A DNA stretch of 64,000 bases from a virus: positions 64,001-128,000 of IMG/VR virus record IMGVR_UViG_3300042884_001120; one strand, given 5' to 3'. Shown here in pieces: positions 19,011-42,991 of this stretch (its first letter is position 1; the number at the start of each line of letters is the position of its first letter). A program made the position numbers and the translations under genes. Under the pieces are notes generated by a model, which was not told where the DNA came from, ran no database searches, and saw only the letters and a list, made by a program, of their open reading frames with translations.

Positions 19011-21599
19011 TTATATACCCGAATCTTTTAAGAAATTTATTTCGTTTGTTGTGGGCATATTACCATTCAGACTACCAACTGGTCTAATTTTGTCTATTAG
19101 GTTCTGCATTATATACTCATCACTTGGTGGTTGTACAACCTTATCTTCAAATGAATAAGAAGTATATATACCATTATCTGACACAGTTATCTGTATAGAA
19201 GAGAGCCCGTCACTAACATTATACTGAACTGGCATTAAACCAGCTACTTTAAATGACGCTGTTTTTTGCACTTCTATCATTTCATAGCTAGAGTTATCAT
19301 AAATAGAATCTACATAATTTTTAATATCCCCTTCTGGTATTATACAATTTTGCGAATTACCTCTTACTAAATTTAAGTTATCTTCTCTAATTTCTTTAAA
19401 ATTATAATCAATTTGTGCTACATTAGTACTACTAATATCTCTAGTTATAGTATATTGAATTTTTGGTATTACTTTTGAGAAACTTGCGGAAGCGCGTATA
19501 TGAATATCATATCCCGCATCTCCATCATTAAAATTACTTAAATCACTCAAACATTGCGATGGGGTAAATATTTCCATGCCCGGCAGCGTAATTTTGGCAC
19601 ACTGATTACTTTTTAATCCATACTTACCCAGAACCTTGCTTACTTGATCGCCATTTGTAGATTCAATAGACTCTACCTTATCTGTTTGGGCCGGAGTATC
19701 TAATGGGTGCGCCGATGCACCAATTTTTACTGAAAAATCATTTAATTCTCTGGCAAAAAATAATTTAATATTTGTATTTTGCCTTGCTTCGGGAAACAGT
19801 CTGAAAAGAAAGTTAGGTCTTCCTTCAGTATTCCCAAAAACTTTTGGCAAATGCTCCTCGTACCATTTGAAAAGCGAATCGTAATATTTTAAGTCATCGC
19901 CACTTGGACTCCATTTAGCATCTCTATTTAACAATAAAAAAGAACTACTTGCACGAATTTTTTTATCTTTATCGCCACCATTCGCCTGAGTAAATGGATC
20001 TTGATTTTGCTGTTGATCTGACTTTAAATCGTTCTTTAACCCAGCAACTAAAGAACCAGACTGGTGCCCAAAATTAAAAATATCTAATCCATTAAGATCT
20101 TGACGCGCTGGATACCATTGAACGCCGCCATCTGGACTCTCCGCGTCTATCTGAGTTCTACTATTACTCGCTCCGGGTACTGGGGTATTAAATTTTTTAT
20201 GCCAGAATTTACCCAAAAAATTCTTAGCCATATACTCAGCATCTGAAAACTGCTTTTCAGCTAACTCTTCATTTACTTCGGCAACAAAAAAGTAATAAGA
20301 CGGGTTAGTAAGCGGATCTCTATTGTTTTTCTTGTCAAAATCCTGAAGATTTTTTAAATCTTCTTTTGCTAGCTTTTTTTTGCACGACACGAAATTAGCA
20401 CTACCATTAACAGCAGAATATACATCAAGTATTTTCATATTGCCAAACTGACTCAATATCTTGTTCTGCTGAGATGGTAACTCTTGACTATCTTCGCCTT
20501 TTTGTATTTTATAGTAATTATTGGCTGTATCGGCATTTAATATTGCGTAATAACGAAACCAAACAAAGGCATCTCTTACAGATCTGCCATAATACGATAA
20601 TGCCGCCTCAAGTTCTTTTAATTTTATAAACTCAGTCCCATTCGGGTTTTCTTCGCTATAAACACTAGGATCTAATAGATCCTTCATAGTTAAGCACTTT
20701 AAATTTTGGAAAGATTGGCTTTGAGATAATTCGCATGGATAGTTTTTTACAAGGCCTTCTTTTGCAAAGTAACCTAATAAACCCCTACTAAATGTATTTT
20801 GTTTACTACCACCATATTGCAAATCAATAACATTACTAATTCCTTCTAACTCCGAAATTGCGGGAATTTTTAATGGGTGTTTTCTATCTACAAAAAACAA
20901 CTTATTAACTATTGGGTCCCAATAATAAGCCAATCCCAAATCAGAACACCATGCGCCTAAAACATCCTTTAGTTTTCCAGTATGTTGGGCACGAAACCTA
21001 TTATTAATATTAGATGGCGCATCGTAGGAGAGTGGTAATTTACCTAATAAATCATTGAATGTATAATATACATCCAAGATTTGAAAATCTGCTAAAGACT
21101 GATCACAGGTACTTTGATATTTATTTTCTGGAGTATTGGGGCATGGATCACAAGGGTCTATAATAGTTTCATTAAGTTCTTGATAACTTACAGTAGAATC
21201 ATAATTTTTATCGCATGGATGATACTCTTTTCCAACAATAATCAAATTCTTTGCACCACCGCTCTGAAGGCCATGTCTTTTATAAAGGCCAACATACCAT
21301 CTATCTAAATCTGCACTTTTATCTACATACTTTAAATTTAGTATTTTTTGATCTGGTGATTTGCTTATATCATAACTAACTAAATAACCATTAAAAACAA
21401 AAGAACCTATGCTAACTTTAGCAGTATCTTCGAAAGTTAGCTCGTTATCAATATCTGGATACCGACCATTTTCACTCACTACGCTAACAGATAGTGTAGA
21501 TGGTGATGATCCATCATTAAAATCCCAAGATATATTATAGGGTAGCCCCCCATAAAAATTTCCCTTGATATCACTAACTGTAAGAATTTTTGTAGGCAT
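19011..21599 (-). CDS. Putative baseplate hub/tail tip protein
   Basis: N-terminal PSTLSVSVV...FVFNGYLVSY...LKYVD pattern and YYWD motif of hub-like proteins; synteny. Confidence 0.55.
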   Translation of the reverse strand: MPTKILTVSDIKGNFYGGLPYNISWDFNDGSSPSTLSVSVVSENGRYPDIDNELTFEDTAKVSIGSFVFNGYLVSYDISKSPDQKILNLKYVDKSADLDRWYVGLYKRHGLQSGGAKNLIIVGKEYHPCDKNYDSTVSYQELNETIIDPCDPCPNTPENKYQSTCDQSLADFQILDVYYTFNDLLGKLPLSYDAPSNINNRFRAQHTGKLKDVLGAWCSDLGLAYYWDPIVNKLFFVDRKHPLKIPAISELEGISNVIDLQYGGSKQNTFSRGLLGYFAKEGLVKNYPCELSQSQSFQNLKCLTMKDLLDPSVYSEENPNGTEFIKLKELEAALSYYGRSVRDAFVWFRYYAILNADTANNYYKIQKGEDSQELPSQQNKILSQFGNMKILDVYSAVNGSANFVSCKKKLAKEDLKNLQDFDKKNNRDPLTNPSYYFFVAEVNEELAEKQFSDAEYMAKNFLGKFWHKKFNTPVPGASNSRTQIDAESPDGGVQWYPARQDLNGLDIFNFGHQSGSLVAGLKNDLKSDQQQNQDPFTQANGGDKDKKIRASSSFLLLNRDAKWSPSGDDLKYYDSLFKWYEEHLPKVFGNTEGRPNFLFRLFPEARQNTNIKLFFARELNDFSVKIGASAHPLDTPAQTDKVESIESTNGDQVSKVLGKYGLKSNQCAKITLPGMEIFTPSQCLSDLSNFNDGDAGYDIHIRASASFSKVIPKIQYTITRDISSTNVAQIDYNFKEIREDNLNLVRGNSQNCIIPEGDIKNYVDSIYDNSSYEMIEVQKTASFKVAGLMPVQYNVSDGLSSIQITVSDNGIYTSYSFEDKVVQPPSDEYIMQNLIDKIRPVGSLNGNMPTTNEINFLKDSGI

Positions 21600-21603
21600 T
21601 TTG

Positions 21604-23748
21604 TTAAAAAAGGTCGTTATTATTATATAATATATCAGAATTTATATCAAAAATACCGCTTCCAGCATTACTGTCAAAATTCGGCAATTCTAAATAATCT
21701 ACCCCAACATTTAAACGTTTTCCAGACAAATATACTTCCGAATAGTTAGTATAATATCTATTTTCAGCTTTAATTAAATTACTATTTCCAGTGATATTAT
21801 AATCAAATATGGCTGGCAGTAATAACAAATCTCCAGATCCGTAAGAAAAAATCCCATTATATTCATCAAAATATAAACCCGATGGGGTTACAGCGTAATC
21901 ACAATTAATTCCAATATTTTCAATTTTTCCAGAAATCATTTTCCTGCCAGAAAAGAATAGCCTACTATTGGTTGGCCAATCAAGAATAAATCCAACTCCA
22001 GATGGATAATAACCAGAAGCCATACAGCCCGAAGAATTAATTAATCTATATGTAACCCAAGACCATATGTTTAGCGAAGAACCATTACCAATTGCTCTTA
22101 TTTTACTAAAATTATTATTCAATCTAGGTATAATACTTGAATATCCACCAGATATATTATTAATTAATGCTATATTAATCCCACTTTCAAGTCCACTTAT
22201 CTCACTTAAAATTTGTAAAGATACTGACCCAACCCCAGCGCCACTAGCATATATAAATATTAAGGAACTTTCCCCTGAAGATACGTCAACCCAATCACCA
22301 GTAAAATCTACTGACTGTCCAGTTGCTAAAAATCCAGTTTTTATTTCTGCAGATTCAGAATAACAGCCGCCCAAACTAAAATCTTTTATATATAAATTAG
22401 TATTATAAGCGTTTTCAACGCTATCAATTATAACCATGTCATTATCACTAGAATTACTACTAAAAAATACTTCATTTCTAGAATTAACCAAATAATCATT
22501 TGATATATTATTTTTTATGTCATATACAGAACCACTTGTAATATTTATTCCAGAAATTTTTGCCAATCCATTTTTTGAAATATAGTAAAAATAATTAGCA
22601 TCATAATTATTAAAAAAAGAGTTTTTGACATAGTCATATTGGCCCTTTAAATTTGTTCTATATGTATAATCATAATTGCCGGTTGGAACGCTTATATCAA
22701 CAACCGCATTATCTTGCATATTGTTTAATATATTTATTTTTGATCTACCAAAAGAATTGACAAAATTACTGTTAAAAACAACATATCCACCACTATATCC
22801 AGTTGACTCAATCACCCTTTGTCCAGAAAGAGGAATTATTCCAGTACCATATTCTGTACCAGTAAGTGCTATTTGGGAATAGCCAGTATACTCAATACCA
22901 AAATCATCAATAAGAACACCAGTAGCAATAATTGAATAACCAGTTATATTAGAATAATACTCAGTTATGCCAGTAGAATATCCAGTTATTTCATTAATAG
23001 TGACCTGTTCGACATAGGGAGTATCTGGTATAAAACTATGTGCAAAACCAGTATTTAAGTATACAATATCATTTAGATATACATAAGGACTAAACAGCAT
23101 AAACTGCTGCATATAGCCAGTGAATCTTTTATTATAGTTATAACTATTTACTACATTGGTATTATAACCTAAGTATATATTTTTAGGATCAAAAATATAA
23201 TTACCATCAATTAAAAAATTATTCGAATTTAGTTTGTTATAAAAATAATTATAATCACCAAATGAAATTTTATTATTGGTTACCGTTAAATATACAGAAC
23301 CCTTATCCGATAGCGTGGAACTAGAAGTGAAAACCTGAGGGCCATTATTTGTATAATATTCGAAATATAAAGCGTTATTAGCAGTGAAACCAAATTCAAA
23401 GCCCTTGTAATAGAATCCCGAGCCGTTATTTCCGGTATCTACTGTTGATATTAAAGTGCCTCCTCCACTAGCCAAATTTTCATAAACTACTACATAAGTA
23501 CTATCTGATAAATTAATATCATTTCCAGTATTTGTTATCTTAACAGAATTACCAGAAAAAAATCCATTTCCAGAATTATTCCAGAAACCATTTAATGTGG
23601 GAACTATCTGTCCGCTAACTTCCGCACCAATTCCACTAATATTAGTAATAGAATTTCCAGTTAAATTAAAATCAAAAAACACCCTGCAATTATCATTTGC
23701 AACGCTATTATATAAGTTTAAAAAATATGGAACTGAGTGATTTGACAT
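21604..23748 (-). CDS. Tail protein with N-terminal LamG-like domain
   Basis: VFFDFN...YLGY...FTGYMQQFMLFS pattern; S/T-G rich. Confidence 0.6.
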   Translation of the reverse strand: MSNHSVPYFLNLYNSVANDNCRVFFDFNLTGNSITNISGIGAEVSGQIVPTLNGFWNNSGNGFFSGNSVKITNTGNDINLSDSTYVVVYENLASGGGTLISTVDTGNNGSGFYYKGFEFGFTANNALYFEYYTNNGPQVFTSSSTLSDKGSVYLTVTNNKISFGDYNYFYNKLNSNNFLIDGNYIFDPKNIYLGYNTNVVNSYNYNKRFTGYMQQFMLFSPYVYLNDIVYLNTGFAHSFIPDTPYVEQVTINEITGYSTGITEYYSNITGYSIIATGVLIDDFGIEYTGYSQIALTGTEYGTGIIPLSGQRVIESTGYSGGYVVFNSNFVNSFGRSKINILNNMQDNAVVDISVPTGNYDYTYRTNLKGQYDYVKNSFFNNYDANYFYYISKNGLAKISGINITSGSVYDIKNNISNDYLVNSRNEVFFSSNSSDNDMVIIDSVENAYNTNLYIKDFSLGGCYSESAEIKTGFLATGQSVDFTGDWVDVSSGESSLIFIYASGAGVGSVSLQILSEISGLESGINIALINNISGGYSSIIPRLNNNFSKIRAIGNGSSLNIWSWVTYRLINSSGCMASGYYPSGVGFILDWPTNSRLFFSGRKMISGKIENIGINCDYAVTPSGLYFDEYNGIFSYGSGDLLLLPAIFDYNITGNSNLIKAENRYYTNYSEVYLSGKRLNVGVDYLELPNFDSNAGSGIFDINSDILYNNNDLF

Positions 23749-25340
23749 TATATTGAAAAAATTGATGTTTCTGCGGTATCGCTTATAGTGAAAGAATACG
23801 TATATCCATTATCTTCTGCTCGCAAATTTCTTTCAACTCTATCTTCAACTCTTAATCTATTGCTAAAACCCACAGTATATAAATTTAAAATTTCTATTGC
23901 CTTGTTTCTTACTAACGAAGTTTTGTCATCCGAAGTTTCAAAAGTTGCACTACCCTGCACTGAAATTTGTCCACGACTAAACATATTTAAATTAAAAGCA
24001 CCATTATTGCCATCAAGATATTGTATTGGATTGTATTTATTTATTGAAGGGGTTATTGACAAATTCCATTCAAAAGTTTTAAAACCAGCTGGTGGAATCT
24101 GACTGTTATCAAAACTTGACTGGATAGAAATAGTTCCATTTATTCTATCTCTCTTAACGCTATAATTTTTAGCGTTGGTATTCATCGGTAAACTGGGATT
24201 AGTTACATTTTGTAAATAAAATTGTTGGCATAGTGGTATTATATTTAAATTATTTAAAGCGGCCTCTGCTTTGGCCAATCTACTGGATTCTGGCCCCCTT
24301 GCTGTTAAAGTTCCATTAAAACCAACCGAAACCTGATCGGTTAGAAATTCGTTATTAATATCTATATTATAATCGAATTTTATATCTTGAGGATCACTTG
24401 TGTAACTATAATTAAAATCTATCTTGTTATCAATGTCGTTCTCGTTAATTGAAAAACTTTCTGGCTCAATATTTAAATAAGTATAATTTGTTAATTTAGT
24501 AAAATTAGTTAATGTTATATTATATGGTTTAAAATTAGCAAACTCTGCTCTTAACTGCGCCATTGTTTTACATGACCCGCCATCTAAATTTCCATTAATA
24601 GATGCGGTATACAAACCTCTCTCATCATCATAATCAGCATCTACATTATAAGATATTATGCTAGAAGTTCTTGCGCCTTTTCTTAAAAGATAATCAATAT
24701 CAATGCTGTACTCGGAATTAAATCTATTAACTGTTTCTGAAATTTTTCTTGGACACAAGTTAGATTGCGATGGCGTAATATTAATAAATTTCGGCAGAAT
24801 TAAAGAACTAACCCCAGTTAAAGATTGTACATAAGACCTAGCATTACTTAGGGCATTATTTGTACCATTTGAAGTATTAAATCCTCGCGCTGAAAATGAT
24901 CTAGTAATTGCCACTGTTCCATCTTGCTGTTCCGTATATTTAATAGTAGAGACCGGATCTAACACCCCATATGTACCCGTAAATAAGTTTTCCGAATAAG
25001 ATGTTAAATCTATAGTAAAATTTAACATACCAACATAATTAGACTGATCAAAGTCAATAGAGTTTACTTTTATATATTTACCACTAAAAAGAGATTGCCC
25101 ATCTTGTTTGATTTCAAGATTTTTAAAATCCTCACGAAAACCAGAAAAAACCTTGTTTTGTTTAAATATTAAATCTGAATAGGAATCAGAGCATATACCA
25201 GTAACCATTCCCTGTAATGTTATCTTTTTTGACACGCCCCATCTCTGACCATAACTAATAAACTCGTCATCAATACCTATGAATGGCGTAGGTGCTACGC
25301 CACTAAAAACATCAATTCCATTGTAAAAAACCTTTACCAT
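23748..25340 (-). CDS. Putative distal tail protein (paralogue-like of upstream gene)
   Basis: Second gene after the tape measure; beta-rich; start ATG 25340 or TTG 25349. Confidence 0.55.
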   Translation of the reverse strand: MVKVFYNGIDVFSGVAPTPFIGIDDEFISYGQRWGVSKKITLQGMVTGICSDSYSDLIFKQNKVFSGFREDFKNLEIKQDGQSLFSGKYIKVNSIDFDQSNYVGMLNFTIDLTSYSENLFTGTYGVLDPVSTIKYTEQQDGTVAITRSFSARGFNTSNGTNNALSNARSYVQSLTGVSSLILPKFINITPSQSNLCPRKISETVNRFNSEYSIDIDYLLRKGARTSSIISYNVDADYDDERGLYTASINGNLDGGSCKTMAQLRAEFANFKPYNITLTNFTKLTNYTYLNIEPESFSINENDIDNKIDFNYSYTSDPQDIKFDYNIDINNEFLTDQVSVGFNGTLTARGPESSRLAKAEAALNNLNIIPLCQQFYLQNVTNPSLPMNTNAKNYSVKRDRINGTISIQSSFDNSQIPPAGFKTFEWNLSITPSINKYNPIQYLDGNNGAFNLNMFSRGQISVQGSATFETSDDKTSLVRNKAIEILNLYTVGFSNRLRVEDRVERNLRAEDNGYTYSFTISDTAETSIFSI

Positions 25341-25374
25341 AAGTACCAATACTTATTTACACTTTTTTGAACAC

Positions 25375-26913
25375 TTATGGCAATGAAGTTATCGATGCAT
25401 TTAGAGAAAAACTTCTTGAAAATGGGTTATAAGTATAGCTAACATCAGATAAAAACTCGCTAGAGCTATTTAATGGCGATATATAAGACTTAGCGGCCGC
25501 CAAGTAAGTGCCCAAACTGGTTGTAGCCTTACCATTCAAGTTTACAGTATAGGAAATTGTATTTGGTAATAAATTTGGCTGTTTTTGTAATATTTCCTTA
25601 TAATTAACAATATTAAAAGTACTGGCCAAGTTTCTATTAAAAGTTTTACTAATTGTTATTAGAGCTTTTCTTACATCTATATTGCTACCCAAATTAGAAT
25701 CGGAATTTGTATATTTTACAGTATAATCTACTTTTCCAGCAACCTTGTTAAATGTAGTTGACTGTGTAACAATTTTAATACCATTAACATAAGAAGATAA
25801 TCTTGAAGATATATTTGGACTAATTGCTAGCCAACCGTTTCTAGCATTTTGATATTTTACATCTATAATATGGTCAAAACCAACAACACTTCCCTGTTCT
25901 GTCAGTGTATATTGCCCAGCTTCCGATTTATCTACTGTAATTTCATATTGCCAATAGTAAGAGCTTTGAATTCTTTCTGTATTAGAGAAAACTATAGTAT
26001 AACTAACAGTGCCCTCAAATGGGGCCGCTGCCCAAGATTTAGTTATTGGATTTGTAGCTAAAGTATTATTACTAGCAGTTGGTAGGTAGTTTGTAAAAAT
26101 AGTATTACATCTTGAATAAGCATTAGCAATATCAGCTTTTGCCTGAGTGTTTGCAGTATCAAATGCAGTTGTTGTATGTCCAACATATTCAGCTTTTTCT
26201 GTTATTTTACCAACGCCAGCGTTATCAAAATCAATACTATGACTTAAACTTAAAGAGTAAACAGAATTAGAGTCTTTATTTATTTCAAAATTTCTTGAGA
26301 ATTGATACTCATTATTAATACTATCATAACTTTCATCGTAGTATTTTTTAATCTGCGAATCGTTGTATTTATTTCCAACAGTATTAATTAAATTATTATT
26401 GTTAAAGAAGTTTTCGGCCATTGTTTTGGCCGCTGTAACTGCGTCCAAAGAATACGGCCCCTTTAAACTAAAATTAATCGACTGCGAATAATTATCTTTA
26501 TTTAAGTTACGATCAAACGTACTAGATTCCGAGAAGTTCTCCAAGTACTTGGAATAAGTAAATATTAGTCCACCATAATCAGTTCCCAATAAACTAGAAA
26601 AATCCCCTTCTTCTGGAATGTCTATATTGACAGTGTAAGTTTTTGTTCTTACGTCATTACCATTGGCAAAACTAATACTTGTTATTGTACCAAGTCCAAA
26701 ATCATTACCATTAATTACTATTGGTTGCCAATTTTCAGAATCTAGTTCAAAAGATTTTAAATCAGTAATAATGCCAGTAACACCATCAGAATTTGTCAGG
26801 TCTAATAATAAACCTTCTATAGCTAATTTTTTAACTGTTCTATAACGAACTGTATCTGAAAAAAACTCAGAAGTTCTGGAAACAGAAAGTAATGTAGCAT
26901 TATTAAAGTTCAT
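25375..26913 (-). CDS. Putative distal tail protein
   Basis: Immediately downstream of the tape measure gene; beta-rich. Confidence 0.55.
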   Translation of the reverse strand: MNFNNATLLSVSRTSEFFSDTVRYRTVKKLAIEGLLLDLTNSDGVTGIITDLKSFELDSENWQPIVINGNDFGLGTITSISFANGNDVRTKTYTVNIDIPEEGDFSSLLGTDYGGLIFTYSKYLENFSESSTFDRNLNKDNYSQSINFSLKGPYSLDAVTAAKTMAENFFNNNNLINTVGNKYNDSQIKKYYDESYDSINNEYQFSRNFEINKDSNSVYSLSLSHSIDFDNAGVGKITEKAEYVGHTTTAFDTANTQAKADIANAYSRCNTIFTNYLPTASNNTLATNPITKSWAAAPFEGTVSYTIVFSNTERIQSSYYWQYEITVDKSEAGQYTLTEQGSVVGFDHIIDVKYQNARNGWLAISPNISSRLSSYVNGIKIVTQSTTFNKVAGKVDYTVKYTNSDSNLGSNIDVRKALITISKTFNRNLASTFNIVNYKEILQKQPNLLPNTISYTVNLNGKATTSLGTYLAAAKSYISPLNSSSEFLSDVSYTYNPFSRSFSLNASITSLP

Positions 26914-26916
26914 TTA

Positions 26917-29900
26917 TTAAGTGATGTTAAGACCAAGAACGTTGAAAAGAGGTTTTGGTTTTTTGGGCGGCGGATTTAAACTTGGATCCTTAGTTACGGT
27001 TGCGGCTGCTATTGCCTCTACTTTGGCTAATCTTCCCTGTATAACATCAATAATTTCCTGATCAACACCTTGAAGCTCTTGTTGAATTTGTTGCCCCTGA
27101 GCTTGTGATGCGGCATTTATTGCGATTGTAATTGGAGAATTAAAACTAAGAGATGATTCGCCCGCTTGTGCTTGAGTCATATTTCTTTGAGTTTCTTCTT
27201 TTTGTCTTTGTATAACATCCATTTCCCCCTGAGTACTTAGCATCATACCCTGATATGGATTTGCTAGAGGGGAACCCGGTAAGGTCTGAGCCCTTTGTGA
27301 TTCAAGTGCGGCATCTGGCATTGTGAACCTTTCTCTATACATTTGGTTAGGTGCTGATTCTAGTAAATTACGCCCACCCATTAAAGCCGCACTATTCATG
27401 CCAACAGCTGGATTAAATATTGTTGACAAGTCTCCCCCTTTTTGTACTTCTTGTGCCGCCATGCCCGGAAGCTGCGCACCTTGTCCAGCTAACCCTCCCA
27501 AAATACTTACCATATTAGAAAGATAGCCATTTGACATTCCTATCTGCGTTGTAAAAACATCTCCTAGACTTCTTATTCCGTCTGGAATTTTATTGACCTC
27601 TTCTGTAGCCGCGCCGTATGTTGCCGATAAAGCAGCGCCTTCCGGACCTAGTTTGCTTATTATATCAGATTGCTTGCCCCTAAGTTGTTCAACTCGCGCG
27701 CTTTGTATATTAGCATCAGTTGGCTTAAATGCTATACCAGCCTTAACCTTTGCCGCCTCCATCAAGCCCTGTTCTGAAGTAAGCGCACCAGTGGTTTGCC
27801 TAACGGTTCTTGCAGCCATTGCTGGATCCAAACCAACTTTCGCTAAATTAGCCTCAATTGACGCCTGTTGTTTTTGACCAATTTTAGCCATAGATTCTAC
27901 CGCCATTTGATACATTGGATTGCTTGTGTCTATAGTGCCTCCTGTGGCTTGATAGGCTTTTATCCAATCGCTAGCGGCCTGTCCCCTTTGTTCGTCCGTA
28001 GCTGTCGTGTCTTTTTGTACGGCAATAAAATTATCTGTGGCCTCTGTAAATTTATCTGACACTGAATTGTCTCCCATTCCGCCATCGTTAAACATCTGAT
28101 CCATCGTTCCACCCAATTTATCCATTTCCTGAATAGTTACTTTAATTAACTCGTCCAGACGCTGAACAGTTTTGGTAGCAGCATCTTTTTGCGCAGCGAA
28201 TAGTAATTTATTATTACTATTGAATGTTTCTCTAAGTTTATTAAGCTGCTCCTCATCTTTAACCCCATTTTCTTTTAATGCAGAAATCATTCCCTCAGTA
28301 TCATATTGCTCTAATGGGCCCAAGGGCCCTTGTATTGTATTAGTTTTAACTGACCCAATTTTAGCAGATATATCTTGAATTTTTTTTGAAAAATCTTGAT
28401 TGCCAGTCACTCCAGATAAGTCACCTAACTGACCTCTTATATCATTATACTGACTAAAATCTTTAACTCCAGTGGCTGTTGGTATTGCTTTTTCGAACGC
28501 TGTATTCAAAGACTGTTTAATGGCCTCATCTATGTCTGCCGCAGATTTAGTTTGCTGTGCGCCAATAGTATCTTGATATATATTTTTTGTTTTAAGGTTT
28601 GATGCAGCTTTTTCAAACCCAAGTGCCTCTAAAATATCAACCTGTCCAGTTGATTTTGTTCTTTTAAAATCCGAAGCAAATTCTGCACCTGAAGTTGCAA
28701 TGCTTGTTCTCGTTGCAATATCCATACTTGATATTACTTTTTTCAACTTGTTTTCAAAATCTTGCAAGGCTTTTACGGCCGCCTGATTACGATCCACAAA
28801 ACCCTTGGCCGTATTCCTAGCCCCATCTAGTCTTATTCTTTTTTCTTCTGAAATTGCCTTGGCTAAATCTTGTGCAAAACTCTGCCAAGAATTTCCAAAC
28901 TGTTGTTCTAATTTTCCAGCTTGCTCCTCAGTAAGTCCTAGCGCACCTCTCAATTTACTTAAATCAATAGTTGCAGATGATAATTCATCACCCATTGCCT
29001 TAAGTTCAGCGTCAGTCTTTCCGCTAATAGCTTGCTTTGATATTTGCGCACCAAATTGTTCTTTATTAATTTTTCCGCCAATAGCGGCTTCAGCAATAGA
29101 AGTTGACTGAACTGCCGCTCCTTGTTTTGCTAGTCTATCACTTAAAGTTTTTAATACATCAGTTAGATTTTTTTGAGTTTTTGCGAAATCAAGACCACCA
29201 GCACTTATAGCCTTTTGTGCTTCTGGACTTGCATTACTTGCGATAGCTCTAATTTCTTTTTCTAACGCTACGGCCTCTCTAGAACCAGCATTACCACCTT
29301 GTCTTAATTCTTGCAGTTGTTCTAATTTTGGAAGTACAGCTTGAGTAACTTCGGCAAGCCTTGATTGCTCTTCCGATGTTTTTTTGGTGGATGCCTGCAA
29401 TTCTGGAAGGTTTGTCCTCGACTCATTTAACGCTTTAGTCCAAGCAGTTAATCCGCCGACAGCCAAACCAAGCGCCCCACCAATAGCGGTTCCGACAGGC
29501 CCTAAGGCGCTACCAACTAAAGCCCCAGTACCAGCGGCAGATAGGGCGGTTCCAATGCCAGTAACTGCGGCAGATTTAACTCTACCTTCTTTATTTGTGG
29601 TATCTATAGATGAGGCAACGGTTTCAGCTATAATCGGTGCAAAAGCCAACGCTGTTCCAGCAGCGCCAGCACCAGCCTGTAGCCTTGATGCGTTACGGGC
29701 GCCACGACTCAGTGTTTCGGCACCACCAGCTTGAATTGTTTTTAGTTTTGCGCGCCTGTCTTTAATTTCTTGGGCAAGCTGATTTCTTTCCTGCGTCTGT
29801 GTTGCGCTTAATTGTTTTGCCGCCTCACGCCTCTGGGAAATTTCTTCGGTAGTAACCTGTATTAAAGCCGCTTTTCTTGTGGCAATTTCTTCTTGATACG

Positions 29901-32706
29901 AGCGCTTGACATTTGGAATTTGAAAAGCTAGTAGTGTTGCAAAACTTGTAAGTTGCGCGCCAACAGCTGTAACAGTTGAACTAATACTAGTACCATCTCC
30001 CTCTGCAAAATTTGGTATATATCCCTTTGCATAACCACGATTTGACATCGCGCGTTTATCGGCTGAGGTAGAGCCCTCGTCTCGCTTGTTAAACACGCCA
30101 ACACCCATTGGATTACTAGAATTTACTAGCTCTGGATATTGTCTGGTATATATGCCGCTCTTCGGTACTCCAGCGCCAATTTCGCGTGATATTGATTCGT
30201 TTAAGGCATTTGCAAAGTTAGGAATATAGCCACTTGCAAATCCGGGCTTTCTTCTTGCTGGCTTACCGGGTGCTTTTCTTTTCGTTCGCTGTTCGGCACT
30301 GCTTCCAAGTATGGCATCTCTACCACCCCTTTCTTTAATAACTTTATCAGCAAAACTTAAAAGATTACCAGAAGATGCGGATACTTTAAAATCAGCAAGA
30401 TTTCCAGCATAACCAAATAATTGTTTTAATTTATCAGCGTTTTGTCCACCCCTTACGTCAAAATCTCCCATATTTGCTGTAGATTTTGCCGCTATATAAT
30501 CTAACGATTTAGATATAGCAACTTCAAACGCAGACCCAACAAAACCCTGTAAAGCGCCATAAGCACCCCTAGACCCACCATCTTTTTCACTTAAAAAACT
30601 CTGACTCAGAACTGATTCATCAACACCCTGACCAAGTGGTTGTAAAGTTTTTATATAATCAGCAACTGTCTGTAATCCTTGTTTTTTTATCAACTCATTT
30701 AAATTACCAGCTGGTTTTACTGCGCCCTTTTTATATCCACGGACTGGTATATCCGTTACTAATATATCTCTATTATTTTTTCCAACTGAACTTGCGTTCG
30801 GAAATGTTCCATATTCTGGAACTAACACGCTTGCATTAGAGTTTATACTAGTTTTTGCATTAGATTCTGCAAAATTAGGAATATATCCACGACCATACAT
30901 TGGAATAACAGCAGAATCACCATTTTTACCAAATCTTGGTATTTCCACTTCTTCACTATTCTTAATAAATTTCTTACCACCAATAGTTCCTCTACTTAAT
31001 TGCGCCCTTGGGTTTTTAGCACCTAATGCTTTAGCTTGCGCTTCTTCCATTGCGTACTGATCAGCAAAATTTGGAATATAACCAGCGGCTTTCGTAGTTA
31101 CTGGGACTTGACTGCCCTTTGGAACTCTAACACCAGCGCCAAATAAATTTTTTGATATTTGGGAAGTTAATGCGGCCTGTTGCTGCATTTGTGTAGTTTG
31201 TTGCTGAAGAACTGTTAATAAAACCTGAGAAGCCTGATTGACACTCATTGCCCCACTCGCCATTTGTTGATACAGCTGTGGATTTTTTGCTAATATTGCA
31301 GAAATACTAGCTTGAATACCTTGCTGTTGAGATGCCGTTGCGTTTAAACCTAGCAACTCCTTCACACTTCCTGCTGAAAATTTTGCGAAGTCTCCAAAAA
31401 GTTTTAACAAAACACCACCAACAAGTGCCAAACCGGGACCAGCGATAATATCTCCTAGCCCCTTTAAGATGCCATTTCCAATTTTGCCGCCAACACTTTC
31501 GCTATCTACATTATTTAAAGACTCTAATAAACTATTTCCTCCACCAACTAAATTTTCTAGCGCTGGGCCAAAAAGAGACTCTCCAGATTTTGCGGCAAAC
31601 TGGGTTGCATTTTGCTTTAGGGCGTTAACTTGCGCAGCTAAAGTTTTGTTTAATTGATCATTTCTTGTAATCGCCTCGTTTGTCGCAGTAGAAGATATTT
31701 GAACTGCGTTATTATAAACAGAATACTCTTTACCCAAATCAGATAGGGCAGCTTTTAAAATGTTAATCTGGAAAACACCACCGACAGCTTCAGCAACCGA
31801 AGCCTGTTGTTGAGAGCCAAGAGTATCATAAACCTTTCCAAGATCTTTTAATAAATCAATAGTTGATCTTAGTTGTCCACTAGCATCCGTAGTTTCGATA
31901 CCGAGACTACCAAGTAAGTCAACAACCTTACCACGCTGAAGCCTTGTAAAAATTGTCTTAAACGAGTTACCAATAACTGCACCACCACGGGCAGTTGTCT
32001 GCTGTGCAGAGGTAACCAAACCAATAAGTTCATCTAACTGAACACCAGATTGAGAAGCACTGCTACCAACACGACTAATTGCTTCTGCCAAGTCAGCGGA
32101 ACTAACCGCGAACGCCGCATCAACTGTTGCAAACTTATTAACTATTTGCGTTGCAGTTACAGACTGAGAGGCGAAACTGTTAACAGCTGCCGTTAATGCC
32201 TCAACGCTCTTTACTGTATCTAAACCGCTTAATCTTGCTAAAATCAGGGCCTCGCTTGTACGTTTTAGCGTCTCCTCTACACCAAGGCCCTGACGTGAAA
32301 ATTCTGTAGCGGCCTTTGCGACTTCCGCAAACGACTGGCCGGTATTTTTTGCAACATTAAAAAGAGAATCGCCAAATTTAGCTATTTGTTTATCAGATAC
32401 ATTTAAAATTACATTAATATCTGCAAGAGATTTCTCTACTTCAATCGTAGATGTTATTAATGATTCGAAAGCCTTATTTAAACCATATAAAATAGTTGCA
32501 CTAGCACCGAAAGCAACAACACGCGCGTTTGCCGCATCCAAGGATTTATTAAATTCAGAAAGCTGTCCAGTAATTCTACCTAATGGCTGGTTGCCCTTAG
32601 TGCTTAAATTTAAATTAAGATTATACTGTTGATTAACTAGTTTTTGTATCGCAGCATATGCTGGAGATACATTAGCATTAATATTAACTGTTGCTTGTGC
32701 GGGCAT
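26917..32706 (-). CDS. Tail tape measure protein (TP901-type core) with internal GYIPNFA-delimited cassette
   Basis: 1929 aa, Ala/Gln-rich helical; AATEFSRQG...TARGGAVIGNSFKTIFTRL TMP core; hydrophobic segments; follows chaperones and tail tube. Confidence 0.92.
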   Translation of the reverse strand: MPAQATVNINANVSPAYAAIQKLVNQQYNLNLNLSTKGNQPLGRITGQLSEFNKSLDAANARVVAFGASATILYGLNKAFESLITSTIEVEKSLADINVILNVSDKQIAKFGDSLFNVAKNTGQSFAEVAKAATEFSRQGLGVEETLKRTSEALILARLSGLDTVKSVEALTAAVNSFASQSVTATQIVNKFATVDAAFAVSSADLAEAISRVGSSASQSGVQLDELIGLVTSAQQTTARGGAVIGNSFKTIFTRLQRGKVVDLLGSLGIETTDASGQLRSTIDLLKDLGKVYDTLGSQQQASVAEAVGGVFQINILKAALSDLGKEYSVYNNAVQISSTATNEAITRNDQLNKTLAAQVNALKQNATQFAAKSGESLFGPALENLVGGGNSLLESLNNVDSESVGGKIGNGILKGLGDIIAGPGLALVGGVLLKLFGDFAKFSAGSVKELLGLNATASQQQGIQASISAILAKNPQLYQQMASGAMSVNQASQVLLTVLQQQTTQMQQQAALTSQISKNLFGAGVRVPKGSQVPVTTKAAGYIPNFADQYAMEEAQAKALGAKNPRAQLSRGTIGGKKFIKNSEEVEIPRFGKNGDSAVIPMYGRGYIPNFAESNAKTSINSNASVLVPEYGTFPNASSVGKNNRDILVTDIPVRGYKKGAVKPAGNLNELIKKQGLQTVADYIKTLQPLGQGVDESVLSQSFLSEKDGGSRGAYGALQGFVGSAFEVAISKSLDYIAAKSTANMGDFDVRGGQNADKLKQLFGYAGNLADFKVSASSGNLLSFADKVIKERGGRDAILGSSAEQRTKRKAPGKPARRKPGFASGYIPNFANALNESISREIGAGVPKSGIYTRQYPELVNSSNPMGVGVFNKRDEGSTSADKRAMSNRGYAKGYIPNFAEGDGTSISSTVTAVGAQLTSFATLLAFQIPNVKRSYQEEIATRKAALIQVTTEEISQRREAAKQLSATQTQERNQLAQEIKDRRAKLKTIQAGGAETLSRGARNASRLQAGAGAAGTALAFAPIIAETVASSIDTTNKEGRVKSAAVTGIGTALSAAGTGALVGSALGPVGTAIGGALGLAVGGLTAWTKALNESRTNLPELQASTKKTSEEQSRLAEVTQAVLPKLEQLQELRQGGNAGSREAVALEKEIRAIASNASPEAQKAISAGGLDFAKTQKNLTDVLKTLSDRLAKQGAAVQSTSIAEAAIGGKINKEQFGAQISKQAISGKTDAELKAMGDELSSATIDLSKLRGALGLTEEQAGKLEQQFGNSWQSFAQDLAKAISEEKRIRLDGARNTAKGFVDRNQAAVKALQDFENKLKKVISSMDIATRTSIATSGAEFASDFKRTKSTGQVDILEALGFEKAASNLKTKNIYQDTIGAQQTKSAADIDEAIKQSLNTAFEKAIPTATGVKDFSQYNDIRGQLGDLSGVTGNQDFSKKIQDISAKIGSVKTNTIQGPLGPLEQYDTEGMISALKENGVKDEEQLNKLRETFNSNNKLLFAAQKDAATKTVQRLDELIKVTIQEMDKLGGTMDQMFNDGGMGDNSVSDKFTEATDNFIAVQKDTTATDEQRGQAASDWIKAYQATGGTIDTSNPMYQMAVESMAKIGQKQQASIEANLAKVGLDPAMAARTVRQTTGALTSEQGLMEAAKVKAGIAFKPTDANIQSARVEQLRGKQSDIISKLGPEGAALSATYGAATEEVNKIPDGIRSLGDVFTTQIGMSNGYLSNMVSILGGLAGQGAQLPGMAAQEVQKGGDLSTIFNPAVGMNSAALMGGRNLLESAPNQMYRERFTMPDAALESQRAQTLPGSPLANPYQGMMLSTQGEMDVIQRQKEETQRNMTQAQAGESSLSFNSPITIAINAASQAQGQQIQQELQGVDQEIIDVIQGRLAKVEAIAAATVTKDPSLNPPPKKPKPLFNVLGLNIT

Positions 32707-32745: not shown

Positions 32746-33765
32746 TTACAACTTATCGCGCGCATTAAGATATTCGGATTTTTCGAGTGTACCGCCACTT
32801 TCTTCGGCCAACTGTAATAAACTTTTGCCGCCAATTTTTTCAACCTTTACTCCCAAGTCCTTTAAATCTGATTGCGTGGCGCCAACATGACCAGTTACTC
32901 TGGTAGAACTATTTTTTAAGTTTTGTTTACTTTTTGCGCTAGAACCACTAGATTGTGAATCCACCCAAGACACAAGCCTTTCTGGATCAGACAGTATTTC
33001 ATCATTGATCGGTTTGCCACCCTCAGCAGAATTTTGTATTATATTTTTAAACATTTTACCATAAATAAGTAAATCTATTTGATACTTTGTACAAAGAGCC
33101 GTCGCCTTACCCCAAAAATTCATGGGAATACAGTCTGTAATATAAATTAAATTTTGAAAAAACATACAAGCAGATACTAACCTGATATTTTCTAGACTTA
33201 ATCTTGATATATGTCCATTAAAACCCGTCCGTATATCCTCCACAACGTCTTCAGATAAATAATAATAATCATTCTCTGACTCGAACACCCTTTCTGTCAA
33301 ACCTTCGTTTTTATAGGTTAATTTCAAGATTGTTTCATCATAAAATTTATCGTTAGCATACTTCTCCAAAGTATAGCCCACAACCTCATTTCTTTGCTTA
33401 TGATAAGTAAGTAAGACCCTCTCATTTCTAACTATCTGTTTTTGAATATCTTCTTTTTGCGATTTATATAATAACTTTTCTTTTGTTTTATGTAGGTTTT
33501 TAACAGTCTTTTTTAAGAAATCTATGGTAACTTCGTTTTGTGACGACCACCACCCTTCAGCAATAGCTCTTTCTAACTTCTCCGCTTCTGTCTCTAGGCC
33601 ACGATTTTTTGCATCTTGATATATTATATCATACCTATCATATATACTAAAGTGCTCGGCTTGACTTGGGTGTTTAAAGAAATAGTCTATACCATTTATC
33701 GTTTTCTTGGAAAACCCACAGGCTATTTCATTATAAATCCTGCCGTACTCTGTAGATTTATCCAC
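32746..33765 (-). CDS. Putative tail assembly chaperone 2
   Basis: Position directly before the TMP; helical; GTG start. Confidence 0.5.
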   Translation of the reverse strand: MDKSTEYGRIYNEIACGFSKKTINGIDYFFKHPSQAEHFSIYDRYDIIYQDAKNRGLETEAEKLERAIAEGWWSSQNEVTIDFLKKTVKNLHKTKEKLLYKSQKEDIQKQIVRNERVLLTYHKQRNEVVGYTLEKYANDKFYDETILKLTYKNEGLTERVFESENDYYYLSEDVVEDIRTGFNGHISRLSLENIRLVSACMFFQNLIYITDCIPMNFWGKATALCTKYQIDLLIYGKMFKNIIQNSAEGGKPINDEILSDPERLVSWVDSQSSGSSAKSKQNLKNSSTRVTGHVGATQSDLKDLGVKVEKIGGKSLLQLAEESGGTLEKSEYLNARDKL

Positions 33766-33770
33766 ATCGC

Positions 33771-34532
33771 TTAAGAGTTACCTTCAGGGGTGGTATTTTC
33801 CAACTCCTTAGTTTCGGTTTTATCTGGCTGTTTATTAGCGGCCTCATCTAGTTGCTTGAAGTCTTCTTCGGTTTCTGCGCGGCCTAGGAACCATAAAGTA
33901 ATTAGGTAAGAAACACGTCTAATTGATGATTGTAATGCCTCGTCGTCGGACTCTTCAATCTCATCATATCTATCAAGATTTTCATCTAACGTATTCTTGT
34001 CAAAGAATTTAGCAAAATCAGTGCCCTTTTCTTGATAAAGTAGATTTGTAATCCACCATAGGATAGTGCGATTTCTAGCCTTTGCTTCGGCAGTGTTTTC
34101 AAAAATATTAATCTGCGCGCTTTCAAAAGATTGAATTTGCCTTCTAACCTCATCTAATTCTGTTGTTAGTTTATTTAATAATTGCTTGTCTTCTTCCGTA
34201 CGAACACCATCGGTCTTAATCAAAAGAGACTGAATGTCAAAAGTCTTATCACGAAATGCGGTTAATAGTTCTCCATATACTTCCCTATCTTGCTCGCTTA
34301 TGCTTCCACCACCATTTGACAAAATTGTATTCCAAGCGGCCTTTGGTAAAACGCCAGCTTTTGCAAACCTAGAAACTTCACTAGCAAAAAATAATTCGCC
34401 ATCCTCACGCAGTCTCCTATTTGGTTTAAGTAGAGCAAAATTTAAAACTTCCTTATTAGAGGTTCCGTCCGAGTTTTTTACTTCTTTTTCGGTACTAAAT
34501 TTATAATACCATTTCTTGTTATTTTGTTGCAT
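33771..34532 (-). CDS. Putative tail assembly chaperone 1
   Basis: Position between tail tube and TMP; coiled coil. Confidence 0.5.
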   Translation of the reverse strand: MQQNNKKWYYKFSTEKEVKNSDGTSNKEVLNFALLKPNRRLREDGELFFASEVSRFAKAGVLPKAAWNTILSNGGGSISEQDREVYGELLTAFRDKTFDIQSLLIKTDGVRTEEDKQLLNKLTTELDEVRRQIQSFESAQINIFENTAEAKARNRTILWWITNLLYQEKGTDFAKFFDKNTLDENLDRYDEIEESDDEALQSSIRRVSYLITLWFLGRAETEEDFKQLDEAANKQPDKTETKELENTTPEGNS

Positions 34533-34540
34533 ATAATATA

Positions 34541-34765
34541 TTATTTCTGCTTGAATGTGAAATCAAAATTATCTAACTGTTCTTCCATATTACGAATGCA
34601 GTTATTTCCATAATCTAATATACGCTTTCTGGTATATTGAAAATCTTCTTCACTTATCTTATCTTTATTTTTTAAATCTTCTATTGTGTATAGAAGTGAC
34701 AAGTAAAGTTTCTTAACCTCACGTGAGGTCGCGCCAATGACAAAATTATTAATATCAAAACTCAT
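34541..34765 (-). CDS. Hypothetical protein
   Basis: 74-aa ORF with own GTGTAA motif (34802-34807). Confidence 0.65.
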   Translation of the reverse strand: MSFDINNFVIGATSREVKKLYLSLLYTIEDLKNKDKISEEDFQYTRKRILDYGNNCIRNMEEQLDNFDFTFKQK

Positions 34766-34811
34766 CCTTTTACCTTTGTTACCTTATTATACCAAATATA
34801 ATTACACCTAT

Positions 34812-34847
34812 AAAAAAATAATGGGCACCTTTTACGGTGCCCATTAT
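34812..34847 (-). terminator. Rho-independent terminator after major tail gene
   Basis: 12-bp stem ATAATGGGCACC/GGTGCCCATTAT followed by a T-run on the minus strand. Confidence 0.85.
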
Positions 34848-34870
34848 AATTATAGTTTAATTTTTATTAA

Positions 34871-35962
34871 TTAAAGGTAACTTCCAGAGATGAAAACGCC
34901 CCTATTTAAGTCTTGAGGACCACCAATCTGCACCTGATACTCTGCACTAAATGTGGCATTATCACCAATCGAAGTGGAAATTGATTGAGAATTTACTTTA
35001 GCTCCCTTTAGGGTATAAGCTAGAGAAGGTGTCCCCAAAGCTCCACATGCTGGCTTTCTCATAATAACAGATAAGTCAAAAGTTCCAGTCTGACAGATCA
35101 TATCTGCTAAATTACCATCCTGTAAATCTCCAAGAATTGCTTCTACAGAAAGAGTAGCCTGTACTGGGAAATCAATTTCACGAGAGAAGGCGAATCTATT
35201 ACCCAGTTTCTGTAATGGAGTTCTACCTAGGTCAAAGGCTAATGAAAAACTCTGAACCTTTAAGTCGTCGATATTAACACCAGTTAAACCATCAATATTT
35301 AAAGTAATATCTCCGGGCTGTAGTGCTGTTACTTGTGAGGCATTATCATTAGTGCTTGCAACTGGCAACTTGAAAAACGATCCTGTAACTGGCTGACCAT
35401 TAGCTGCATTAATAGCTGGAATTACAGTTGATGCAGTAATATCTGAATAAACTCTAATATTTAGGGCCTCTAAGTCAACACTGGTAGTTGGGATATCACC
35501 CACGGCACCTTCTACGGAATAGGAGGTAATGAAAGCATTTCCAACACCTATAACTCCACTGCGTGTTCCAGCATACCCAACGGCATCATTTCCTTCGTCA
35601 GCAATCAAGAGGAAGTAATTCTTTTCGTCACTTGTCTTGTTCAAGATACCCGATAAGCAAGAAACTGCTGTCTGCGAACCGGTTGTTACAGTTAATCCAA
35701 GATATTTTTCATTACTGCCATCTGTAGGATAGTAACTGAAACTAGAACTTACGGTTGGTGCTTCAACTTCAACACGGTCTATAGCAGCAAGATTTCCATA
35801 TTGGTTAACATCAGTGAAGTTTCTTGAAAAGTCTTCATCAAAAGATTGAACACGAGTTAGTTGCTTGATAGTACCAACTCCAGTATGTTGACCTGTAGCG
35901 CTACCAGTAACTTGCCCCGCAAAGAGTGATAACACATTATATATTGTACGATTTCTTGGCAT
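34871..35962 (-). CDS. Major tail tube protein
   Basis: MPRNR start, RVQS motifs in two similar halves, strong terminator downstream, synteny. Confidence 0.75.
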   Translation of the reverse strand: MPRNRTIYNVLSLFAGQVTGSATGQHTGVGTIKQLTRVQSFDEDFSRNFTDVNQYGNLAAIDRVEVEAPTVSSSFSYYPTDGSNEKYLGLTVTTGSQTAVSCLSGILNKTSDEKNYFLLIADEGNDAVGYAGTRSGVIGVGNAFITSYSVEGAVGDIPTTSVDLEALNIRVYSDITASTVIPAINAANGQPVTGSFFKLPVASTNDNASQVTALQPGDITLNIDGLTGVNIDDLKVQSFSLAFDLGRTPLQKLGNRFAFSREIDFPVQATLSVEAILGDLQDGNLADMICQTGTFDLSVIMRKPACGALGTPSLAYTLKGAKVNSQSISTSIGDNATFSAEYQVQIGGPQDLNRGVFISGSYL

Positions 35963-36020
35963 AAAGTTTTAAAAGGTTACTATTAATTACATTCATCTAC
36001 CTAAAATAGACACTATAGAA

Positions 36021-36875
36021 TTAATTAAATCTTGGGGTTCTTACGTCAGATAGCTCGAAGTCAACGATTGCCGCCACTAACTTGCTATTCATTTTTTTAT
36101 TTTCTGTTTCAGACAATCTAGAAACAGTCACCCTATCCACGTAAACCCAATCATTTTGTCCAGTACATAAATCAAAATAATTATAACTAGATAATCCAGA
36201 TTTTAAATCTCCATATATATTATATGGTAATTTTTGCGGTGATACTAGTGGGAATGTTTTTCTAGCACTATCCGCCATAATAGAAATTGCACCATCTAGC
36301 GAATATATGTTCTCCGCCAAAATAACACACCTCATAGAACTCATCGTATTATCCTGCCCACCAAAAGCAAATGGTTTATTTTGAATACTTGTATTCTTAA
36401 AGAATATACAGGGATATGGATCATCATTCCAAGCTAATGCACCAGTAACTCTAGTTACTTTTGGCATTGGATCATATCTTTTTTCAAATAGTAAGTTTTC
36501 TTCTTTTTCATCTGTATAGTACAGATTGAATTCCTTAAAAGAATAGGCAATAGATAAGTTTTGTAAATTTTGAGATACCGTATTATTAAATAACACTCTT
36601 CCTCTATTAAAATCTAAAGCAGTTCCACTTATCCCCCTAGGAATAAAAGTGCCATTTGAAAAAACGCCGCTAGGAATCAATGCGTTCTGTACACTAGTGT
36701 CTAGAACCCACTGCTTAAAAGGTGAGCCATAAATTGTATTTTGTGAAAAAGTTGGGTCTTGAGATAAATATAACTTACCACTAAAATTCTGAAAGGCCTC
36801 TCCCTTATAAAGCATTTCATGGTCTAACCATAAATAAAAACTAGATGTTAAACTATTTAAATAAGTAGGTTTCAT
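36021..36875 (-). CDS. Putative tail terminator/completion protein
   Basis: YPCIF...PFAFGG motif; directly upstream of the tail tube. Confidence 0.55.
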   Translation of the reverse strand: MKPTYLNSLTSSFYLWLDHEMLYKGEAFQNFSGKLYLSQDPTFSQNTIYGSPFKQWVLDTSVQNALIPSGVFSNGTFIPRGISGTALDFNRGRVLFNNTVSQNLQNLSIAYSFKEFNLYYTDEKEENLLFEKRYDPMPKVTRVTGALAWNDDPYPCIFFKNTSIQNKPFAFGGQDNTMSSMRCVILAENIYSLDGAISIMADSARKTFPLVSPQKLPYNIYGDLKSGLSSYNYFDLCTGQNDWVYVDRVTVSRLSETENKKMNSKLVAAIVDFELSDVRTPRFN

Positions 36876-42376: not shown

Positions 42377-42991
42377 TTAATTTATACAGGAAAGGATTAA
42401 ATTTGACTCTGCATCGCGTCTTTCCAATAGGCCATCTAGCCCCCTGTCCTTCCATATACGTTTCATTTTTTGAAACTCAAGGGCAATACTTCTATAATCC
42501 TTTTTCGGCACAAGGATTTTTATTTCCCTCATTTCCCTACGACTATCACCAGTTAAGCTAGACCCACGGTTAAAAACTAATGAGACAATTGCACCATACG
42601 CATTATCACATAGCTTATCTAGTTCTGGGAAAGCTCTTTCGGCAAGCTTGGCAAACTTAGGCCAAATAAGATCATTAAAAATATCTACAGCTTGATCCCA
42701 AGTTATAATTATACCACTATTTTTATATTGATTTGTATACTCCTTACCGGCTAGCCCCTTTTTGCCAGACGCGCCTTTAACAATGTCTAATTGCTTTTTA
42801 GGTAAAAAATTAAATATCTTTTCTAGCTCTGCGGGAGTATAGTAACCACAATCCACTCCTATACCAAGCGTCATGCCGCTTGCGCCACCGGGCCACGTTG
42901 GCTTGGCTAAAAACCTATCGTAATACGACTTACCACCCCCTACTTCGTACTTCAATATTAAATCTAGTGCTTTTGGTGAAGGTTTTTTCAT
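42377..42991 (-). CDS. Endolysin (lysozyme fold, pesticin-C-like)
   Basis: KYEVGG...WPGGASGMTLGIGVDCG...AIVSLVFNRG...GLLERRDAE. Confidence 0.85.
   Translation of the reverse strand: MKKPSPKALDLILKYEVGGGKSYYDRFLAKPTWPGGASGMTLGIGVDCGYYTPAELEKIFNFLPKKQLDIVKGASGKKGLAGKEYTNQYKNSGIIITWDQAVDIFNDLIWPKFAKLAERAFPELDKLCDNAYGAIVSLVFNRGSSLTGDSRREMREIKILVPKKDYRSIALEFQKMKRIWKDRGLDGLLERRDAESNLILSCIN

Follow-up and report, generated by a model that had tools for sequence, protein, structure and literature searches.

The window analysed here, a stretch of 64,000 nucleotides corresponding to bases 64001–128000 of the IMG/VR virus record IMGVR_UViG_3300042884_001120 (154,360 bp, complete, with direct terminal repeats), codes for a predicted tail tape measure protein (TMP), P0001, whose central segment, residues 614–825 (window positions 30232–30867), holds a domain designated domain D. 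As judged from sequence comparison, domain D is a new TMP-restricted domain family and a fixed, clade-defining part of these proteins, not a sporadic cargo or a mobile insert. It carries strictly conserved residues in the order known from PD-(D/E)xK nucleases, and we put the chances at about even that it is delivered with the virion and acts as a metal-dependent nuclease or as a module binding DNA ends. The segment had been singled out before in a reading of the letters alone (the sequence-only reading) as a nuclease-like domain carried as cargo by the TMP, with a mobile, intein-like element as the alternative.

Conserved residues of domain D and their predicted arrangement

The motifs GSAFEVAI, GDFDV and LADFKVS, as well as the basic tail listed in the sequence-only reading, were all found in the 1929-residue TMP, at the positions given in Table 1. 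Conservation was calculated from 217 unique homologous domain sequences. The sequences of the relatives otherwise drop to about 20–25% identity, while the tetrad E728, D750, D772 and K774 shows E/D swaps only (percentages in Table 1), and G724 and F727 are also 100% conserved. Every divergent subgroup retains the E/D/(D/E)xK signature, including the eight that hhalign joins to the family at 88–99% probability. Strong purifying selection evidently acts on domain D, whose most constrained polar positions are the four residues pointed out in the sequence-only reading. A comparable E..D..DxK regular expression matches 2.5% of 200-residue TMP background windows; taken by itself, such a pattern could be due to chance, but its conservation throughout the family could not, and a chance motif was rejected for this reason. 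A Toprim site (E...DxD) was rejected as well, D748 being variable and E728 helical.

AlphaFold2 prediction from the single sequence of residues 614–825 gave a useless model (predicted local distance difference test, pLDDT, 36.8). With alignment A2, composed of 29 sequences from the window and from IMG/VR loci, the pLDDT rose to 82.9 and the predicted template modelling score was 0.75. The latter model is a confident one and shows a compact alpha/beta domain spanning residues of about 617–800; it contains strands within residues 617–658, followed by helices at 669–686, 697–705 and 713–734, the last of which bears E728. A strand at 751–752 begins just past D750 and is followed by a short helix (757–764), a strand at 770–773 with D772 and K774 at its end, and a helix at 779–792 which includes K788. 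A complex prediction with two copies of domain D scored 0.33 against a mark of 0.42.

Mean-field direct coupling analysis (DCA) was performed on 235 aligned members (effective number of sequences 187; 16,878 pairs of variable columns), and its signal was validated by the local i,i+4 couplings, which sit in predicted helices. Couplings between the two central strands were found for V751–F773 (z = 4.4), R752–L770 (z = 4.2) and G747–S776 (z = 2.9); since the i+j sums of these pairs all lie at 1522–1524, the strands should be antiparallel, with D750 opposite F773/K774. The helix–strand couplings S725–F773 (z = 4.5), S732–F773 (z = 3.9) and V723–V775 (z = 4.3) indicated that the E728 face of the helix packs on the DxK strand. 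The strongest pair of all was R752–E792, a salt bridge, and DCA did not define how the N-terminal strands pair with the core. By the pairing, and not by coordinates, E728, D750, D772 and K774 come to lie side by side on one helix and two strands, an arrangement whose local geometry would be that of a PD-(D/E)xK site.

Several features are shared with members of the PD-(D/E)xK superfamily, such as Hjc, Mrr_cat and the type II restriction endonucleases PspGI and Bse634I. These include the ordered succession of a helix E, a D at the start of a strand and an adjacent antiparallel (D/E)xK strand, and a following helix that bears a conserved polar position. The x of the (D/E)xK motif, which is hydrophobic and is F773 in domain D, packs on the first helix. 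The spacing between D and (D/E)xK in domain D is 22 residues, which lies inside the range known for the superfamily.

Distribution of domain D and organization of the cassette

A word-index search identified 50 related TMPs, and 80 loci were obtained when IMG/VR was scanned with the TMP alignment; the scan of IMG/VR with the single protein gave no match. In an exhaustive hidden Markov model (HMM) search of 1.84 billion representatives, 493 clusters reached E ≤ 1e-3 and, at the stricter E ≤ 1e-30, 94 remained; the domain D matches listed were all TMP-length proteins or TMP fragments at contig ends. By a relaxed iterated HMM domain D was recognized in 255 of the 271 TMPs collected. The remaining full-length TMPs form subgroups joined to the family by hhalign at 88–99%, all of which keep FE...D...(D/E)xK...K, and in each of the TMPs without an HMM match the slot is occupied by a divergent copy or by a different module. 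Domain D co-diverges with its TMP. The description of domain D as cargo is therefore to be abandoned, as the domain was found only in TMPs, in at least 255 of the 271, and in the same cassette. In some relatives domain D occurs as a tandem pair, as in L009 (TMP residues 648–871 and 899–1125), L021 and P0113.

The cassette is built of modules delimited by a seven-residue motif, GYIPNFA in P0001, and the edges of the segment 614–825 fall exactly at motifs 2 and 3. The usual order in relatives is motif, short module A, motif, domain D, motif, short module B, motif; the TMP of the window has this minimal A–D–B cassette, with no effector-type module besides domain D. The family consensus of the motif consists of a [KR]-rich stretch, [AS], any residue and G[FY][IV]PN[FY][AS]. 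It is present in 2–9 copies per TMP and delimits every cassette module; its conceivable functions include cleavage, docking to the tube or to a chaperone, and strand pairing. In 727 unique motif contexts the positions −7 to −3 contained 24–32% K/R and were almost free of acidic residues, with Ala or Ser at position −2.

The linker at residues 801–825 was modelled with low confidence, which is consistent with disorder, and carries a net positive charge in 96% of relatives. The sequence-only reading had taken its basic stretch as the tail of the nuclease domain. The stretch is indeed present at 30244–30288, but it belongs to the extended motif and is not a domain-specific DNA-binding tail, because the K/R enrichment precedes all 727 motif copies.

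The intein-like alternative, in which domain D would be a mobile homing-type nuclease inserted between two self-processing half-domains, draws on the bracketing of the domain by repeated GYIPNFA motifs and two modules of about 60 residues, and on the coming and going of extra modules in the cassette of relatives. It is contradicted by the absence of an empty allele, with A directly joined to B, among the 271 TMPs, and by the co-divergence of domain D with the TMP together with the lack of homologues elsewhere. Furthermore, modules A and B are unrelated, no kinship being detectable by hhalign (0.2%), the G+C content is uniform along the TMP gene, and no Hint or intein match was found in Pfam at E ≤ 10. 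This alternative is largely refuted, and we consider it highly improbable. The idea of mobile cargo is apt for the accessory modules of relatives described below and wrong for domain D.

Additional modules in relatives and the function of domain D

In the relatives P0048, P0049 and L036 an unrelated extra module occupies the first slot (after motif 2) and domain D is found one slot further. In L027, too, the first slot holds an unrelated module, with no copy of domain D detected, and in L021 the first-slot module is divergent and D-like (hhalign 73%). By eye, the unrelated first-slot modules look like minimal PD-ExK nucleases with PD...ExK or D...EVK hairpins, for example PDFKKGDIFAEVK in L036 and AAIDGYRIDGKKITIAEVK in P0048. 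A PD-ExK regular expression matched four of the five slot modules (P0048, L036, L027 and the D-like module of L021) versus 2.5% of the background; as the expression was built post hoc, this result is supportive only. The first-slot extra modules gave no match in Pfam or PADLOC and no significant hhalign result against Mrr_cat, and no shorter standalone homologue of the P0048 module was found in a word-index search.

Longer relatives hold still other modules, which lie between additional copies of the motif. A GNAT module in L025 (7580–7744, plus strand) matched PF00583 with E = 2.3e-6 (28.3 bits versus a cut-off of 20.7) and contains the acetyl-CoA motif RGQGIAG (RGxGxG); by phmmer the GNAT module was found in five TMPs, those of L021 (7058–7591, plus strand), L025, L032, L036 and L065. 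A module of about 170 residues with a Walker A motif (GPAGVGKTT or GPSGSGKTT) and a Walker B-like FILD is present between domain D and module B in five related TMPs, including L021 (7613–8122, plus strand) and P0048 (residues 1045–1218); its Pfam matches, to PhoH and AAA, are weak. A PcfJ-like module was identified in L027 (9734–10045, plus strand), a TMP relative of 3605 residues (PF14284, E = 1.8e-6, 28.3 bits versus a cut-off of 25). Neither P0001 nor six longer relatives matched any peptidase family.

Since enzymes that need acetyl-CoA or nucleoside triphosphates, such as the GNAT and P-loop-like modules, can function only in a cytoplasm, it can be argued that this is where the cassette acts, either in the host after delivery or, less likely, in the producer cell. 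With cytoplasmic action of the cassette, a DNA-directed role of domain D becomes physically sensible. The delivery with the virion that had been proposed in the sequence-only reading is plausible, the domain being part of a TMP with a PF10145 match.

Another possibility is that domain D is a hydrolase of a different kind, a peptidoglycan or envelope glycosidase or a phosphodiesterase, which would act in the periplasm during tail penetration. Enzymes embedded in TMPs are known from mycobacteriophage TM4 (Rpf-like and peptidase motifs) and from the muralytic region of T5 Pb2, both of which attack the cell wall. P0001 resembles these proteins in that a globular module of catalytic appearance lies midway along a long TMP which, at infection, is ejected into the envelope of the host, and differs from them in its nuclease-type signature and in the multi-module, motif-delimited cassette. 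By Pfam, the endolysin gene at 42377–42991 is the only wall hydrolase recognized, there being no other in the TMP or in neighbouring tail genes, and in the predicted model a helix Glu followed by a small Asp-bearing sheet may recall lysozyme-like layouts. On the other hand, the searches brought up no fold or family of lysozymes, transglycosylases or peptidases, two invariant lysines and a (D/E)xK strand are foreign to glycosidases, and the GNAT and Walker-A sister modules require cytoplasmic cofactors. An envelope hydrolase is accordingly regarded as improbable, a little more so than the structural role considered below.

A number of results weigh against a nuclease. Foldseek searches with the domain model gave best E values of 0.29 (PDB) and 0.25 (BFVD), with nothing above noise and no match to a restriction endonuclease fold, and a wide VIA-align search, together with a second look at the Foldseek list, also gave no match above noise. 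Sequence searches of Pfam, PHROG, PADLOC and PDB with the domain and with 29 members found nothing relevant even at E ≤ 10, and hhalign of the family against Mrr_cat (25 sequences from Flavobacteriaceae loci, the sole reference family compared) gave a probability of 0.1%. The topology of the model departs from the canonical alpha-beta-beta-beta-alpha-beta core, with a short helix between the D and DxK strands and no fourth strand after the last helix; besides, an extra N-terminal beta region and two helices distinguish domain D from PD-(D/E)xK members, as does its occurrence in TMPs only. Standalone homologues, which would provide a functional context, were absent from word-index searches limited to shorter proteins. 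Finally, a folded 20-kDa domain in three copies would probably be hard to fit in the lumen of the tail tube, and the near-universal presence of domain D would be expected of a structural or assembly part no less than of an enzyme. PD-(D/E)xK membership is based on the motif and local geometry, with no profile-level support. Of the restriction endonuclease-like active site proposed in the sequence-only reading, the placement of conserved residues on one helix and on a neighbouring pair of antiparallel strands is upheld by the model and by DCA, and no link to any nuclease by fold, family or profile was found. An ESM Atlas feature search returned unnamed clusters and one TMP cluster only, with scores up to 0.83.

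These results would also suit a non-catalytic domain serving in TMP folding, trimer packing, chaperone binding, docking to the tube or formation of a trans-envelope conduit, in which the charged residues would be engaged in a buried network of salt bridges or metal contacts. The fixed position of domain D in essentially every clade member, the lack of homologues outside TMPs and of an enzyme fold or family match, and the salt bridge R752–E792 as the top covariation pair speak for such a role. Nevertheless, strict invariance of E, D, (D/E)xK and K at an overall identity of about 20–25% is typical of catalytic or metal sites, and bona fide enzyme modules are present in the same cassette of relatives. 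We therefore consider a purely structural domain unlikely, though it is the best placed of the alternatives to a nuclease or DNA-end-binding module.

If domain D is such a nuclease or DNA-end-binding module, it would ride in the tail lumen within the TMP, in an extended and non-native conformation, be expelled with the TMP at infection and refold at or inside the inner membrane or in the cytoplasm. There it would bind DNA and cleave it with a divalent metal, the substrate being either the DNA of the host or the phage genome at its leading end, which the domain might hold as a pilot. Because it is universal in the clade and not patchy, domain D probably serves a core infection step (DNA-end handling or immediate attack on host DNA) rather than being an optional anti-defence accessory. 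During genome injection the TMP of phage lambda (gpH) is proximity-labelled by a TurboID fusion of ManZ, which is an inner-membrane protein, and thus reaches the cytoplasmic face (PMC13190303).

The larger relatives suggest a polyvalent, effector-carrying TMP, and the nearest published concept is that of the polyvalent protein. In the polyvalent proteins described by Iyer et al. in 2017 (PMC5512222) GNATs and nucleases are recurrent, usually together with a zincin-like metallopeptidase (MPTase), and the term "tape measure" does not occur in that paper. The likeness would consist in a long polypeptide delivered with DNA, which strings effector domains that are gained and lost between relatives, delivery by the TMP being our inference. 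Unlike the polyvalent proteins, which are delivered from the head or by conjugation and typically have an MPTase, the carrier here is a TMP without a peptidase whose modules are separated by motifs. Tentatively, and with less confidence than in the nuclease or DNA-end-binding function itself, a "polyvalent tape measure" may be envisaged, in which the basic-G[FY][IV]PNF[AS] motif serves as processing or docking punctuation between enzyme modules that are threaded through the tail and released in the cytoplasm of the host before the DNA arrives. The universal PD-(D/E)xK-like domain would then be an obligatory first-strike or DNA-piloting enzyme, accompanied by optional GNAT, P-loop NTPase-like, PcfJ-like and further nuclease-like units.

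TMPs are usually seen as rulers and conduit formers, at times with a wall-degrading motif, and the literature searched contained no description of a TMP with a nuclease fold or a GNAT domain. If the above proposal is true, siphophage-type tails can inject catalytic effectors within the ruler itself, and a nuclease-type site is fixed in about 490 TMP clusters; sister slots with acetyltransferase and NTPase-like modules point in the same direction and make a parallel to the head-delivered polyvalent proteins. What is new here is a testable domain family together with a sharply conserved seven-residue delimiting motif. They bear on the route by which TMPs arrive at the cytoplasmic side of the membrane, the place of their encounter with SNIPE and other defence nucleases (PMC13190303).

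The tape measure gene, its neighbours and the phage

The features of the TMP gene and the first-slot modules of relatives are collected in Table 1.

Table 1. Features of the P0001 gene (window positions) and first-slot extra modules of related TMPs (positions in the respective sequence).
Feature	Residues	Position	Strand	Basis or observation
Tail TMP gene (P0001)	1929 aa	26917..32706	minus	Open reading frame; largest of the tail block
PF10145 (TP901-type TMP, PhageMin_Tail)	119–310	31777..32352	minus	E = 9.5e-28, 97.9 bits versus cut-off 33.2
Gly/Ala-rich hydrophobic segment upstream of the cassette	412–445	31372..31473	minus	Kyte-Doolittle scan
GYIPNFA motif 1	542–548	31063..31083	minus	
Short module A	549–606	30889..31062	minus	Iterated HMM, 78 relatives at E < 1e-3
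GYIPNFA motif 2	607–613	30868..30888	minus	
Folded domain D	~617–800	30307..30858	minus	AlphaFold2, conservation, covariation
GSAFEVAI	724–731	30514–30537	minus	
E728 codon (helix)	728	30523..30525	minus	97% E, 3% D in 217 sequences
GDFDV	747–751	30454–30468	minus	
D750 codon	750	30457..30459	minus	100% D
LADFKVS	770–776	30379–30399	minus	
D772-F773-K774 codons, (D/E)xK strand	772–774	30385..30393 (D772 30391–30393, K774 30385–30387)	minus	D772 92% D, 8% E; K774 100%
K788 codon, in helix after the DxK strand	788	30343..30345	minus	99% K
Low-confidence linker with basic stretch RTKRKAPGKPARRKP (residues 807–821, 30244–30288)	801–825	30232..30306	minus	pLDDT 49–55
GYIPNFA motif 3	826–832	30211..30231	minus	
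Short module B	833–894	30025..30210	minus	Iterated HMM, 208 relatives
GYIPNFA motif 4	895–901	30004..30024	minus	
Gly/Ala-rich hydrophobic segments downstream of the cassette	908–930 and 1009–1093	29428..29985	minus	Kyte-Doolittle scan
First-slot extra module, L036		5885–6460	plus	
First-slot extra module, L027		5939–7084	plus	
First-slot extra module, P0048	614–803			
First-slot extra module, P0049	614–830			

Besides the PF10145 match, ten PHROG tape-measure families matched P0001 (best E value 2.8e-51). These matches, the hydrophobic segments and the position of the gene fit the assignment, and P0001 is by these comparisons a TP901-type phage tail TMP. The mean identity to 29 relatives was highest in the PF10145 region (63% for residues 1–480), 45% in the core of domain D and 15–21% in the C-terminal 1000 residues. 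The Gly/Ala-rich stretches on either side of the cassette resemble membrane-inserting segments proposed for other TMPs, and a similar role is putative here.

Capsid and protease genes are located upstream of the TMP gene on the same strand. Ten neighbouring structural genes gave no PHROG match, and PHROG and Pfam together gave one weak capsid match. The eight tail-block genes flanking the TMP gene (19011–26913 and 32746–36875, minus strand) had no match in PHROG or Pfam, and these tail proteins could not be annotated by sequence. A large distal tail protein is encoded at 9697–14184 (minus strand) and contains a Laminin_G_3/ConA-like lectin domain (E = 2e-13); its gene is adjoined by one for an RCC1-repeat propeller (14244–15071, minus strand), and the two products are probable receptor-binding parts.

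In agreement with an uncultivated phage lineage, the 377-residue cassette had no tblastn match among 50,697 cultured-phage records. Among 185,579 species-representative genomes domain D was found in one contig, a 30-kb contig of an uncultured Flavobacteriaceae metagenome-assembled genome (L082; G001:C42:19497-19925, in an open frame of 1449 residues). This contig is a weak clue to the host, in line with the low G+C content (about 32%), or alternatively a phage contig binned with that genome; the hosts of the lineage are possibly Flavobacteriaceae.

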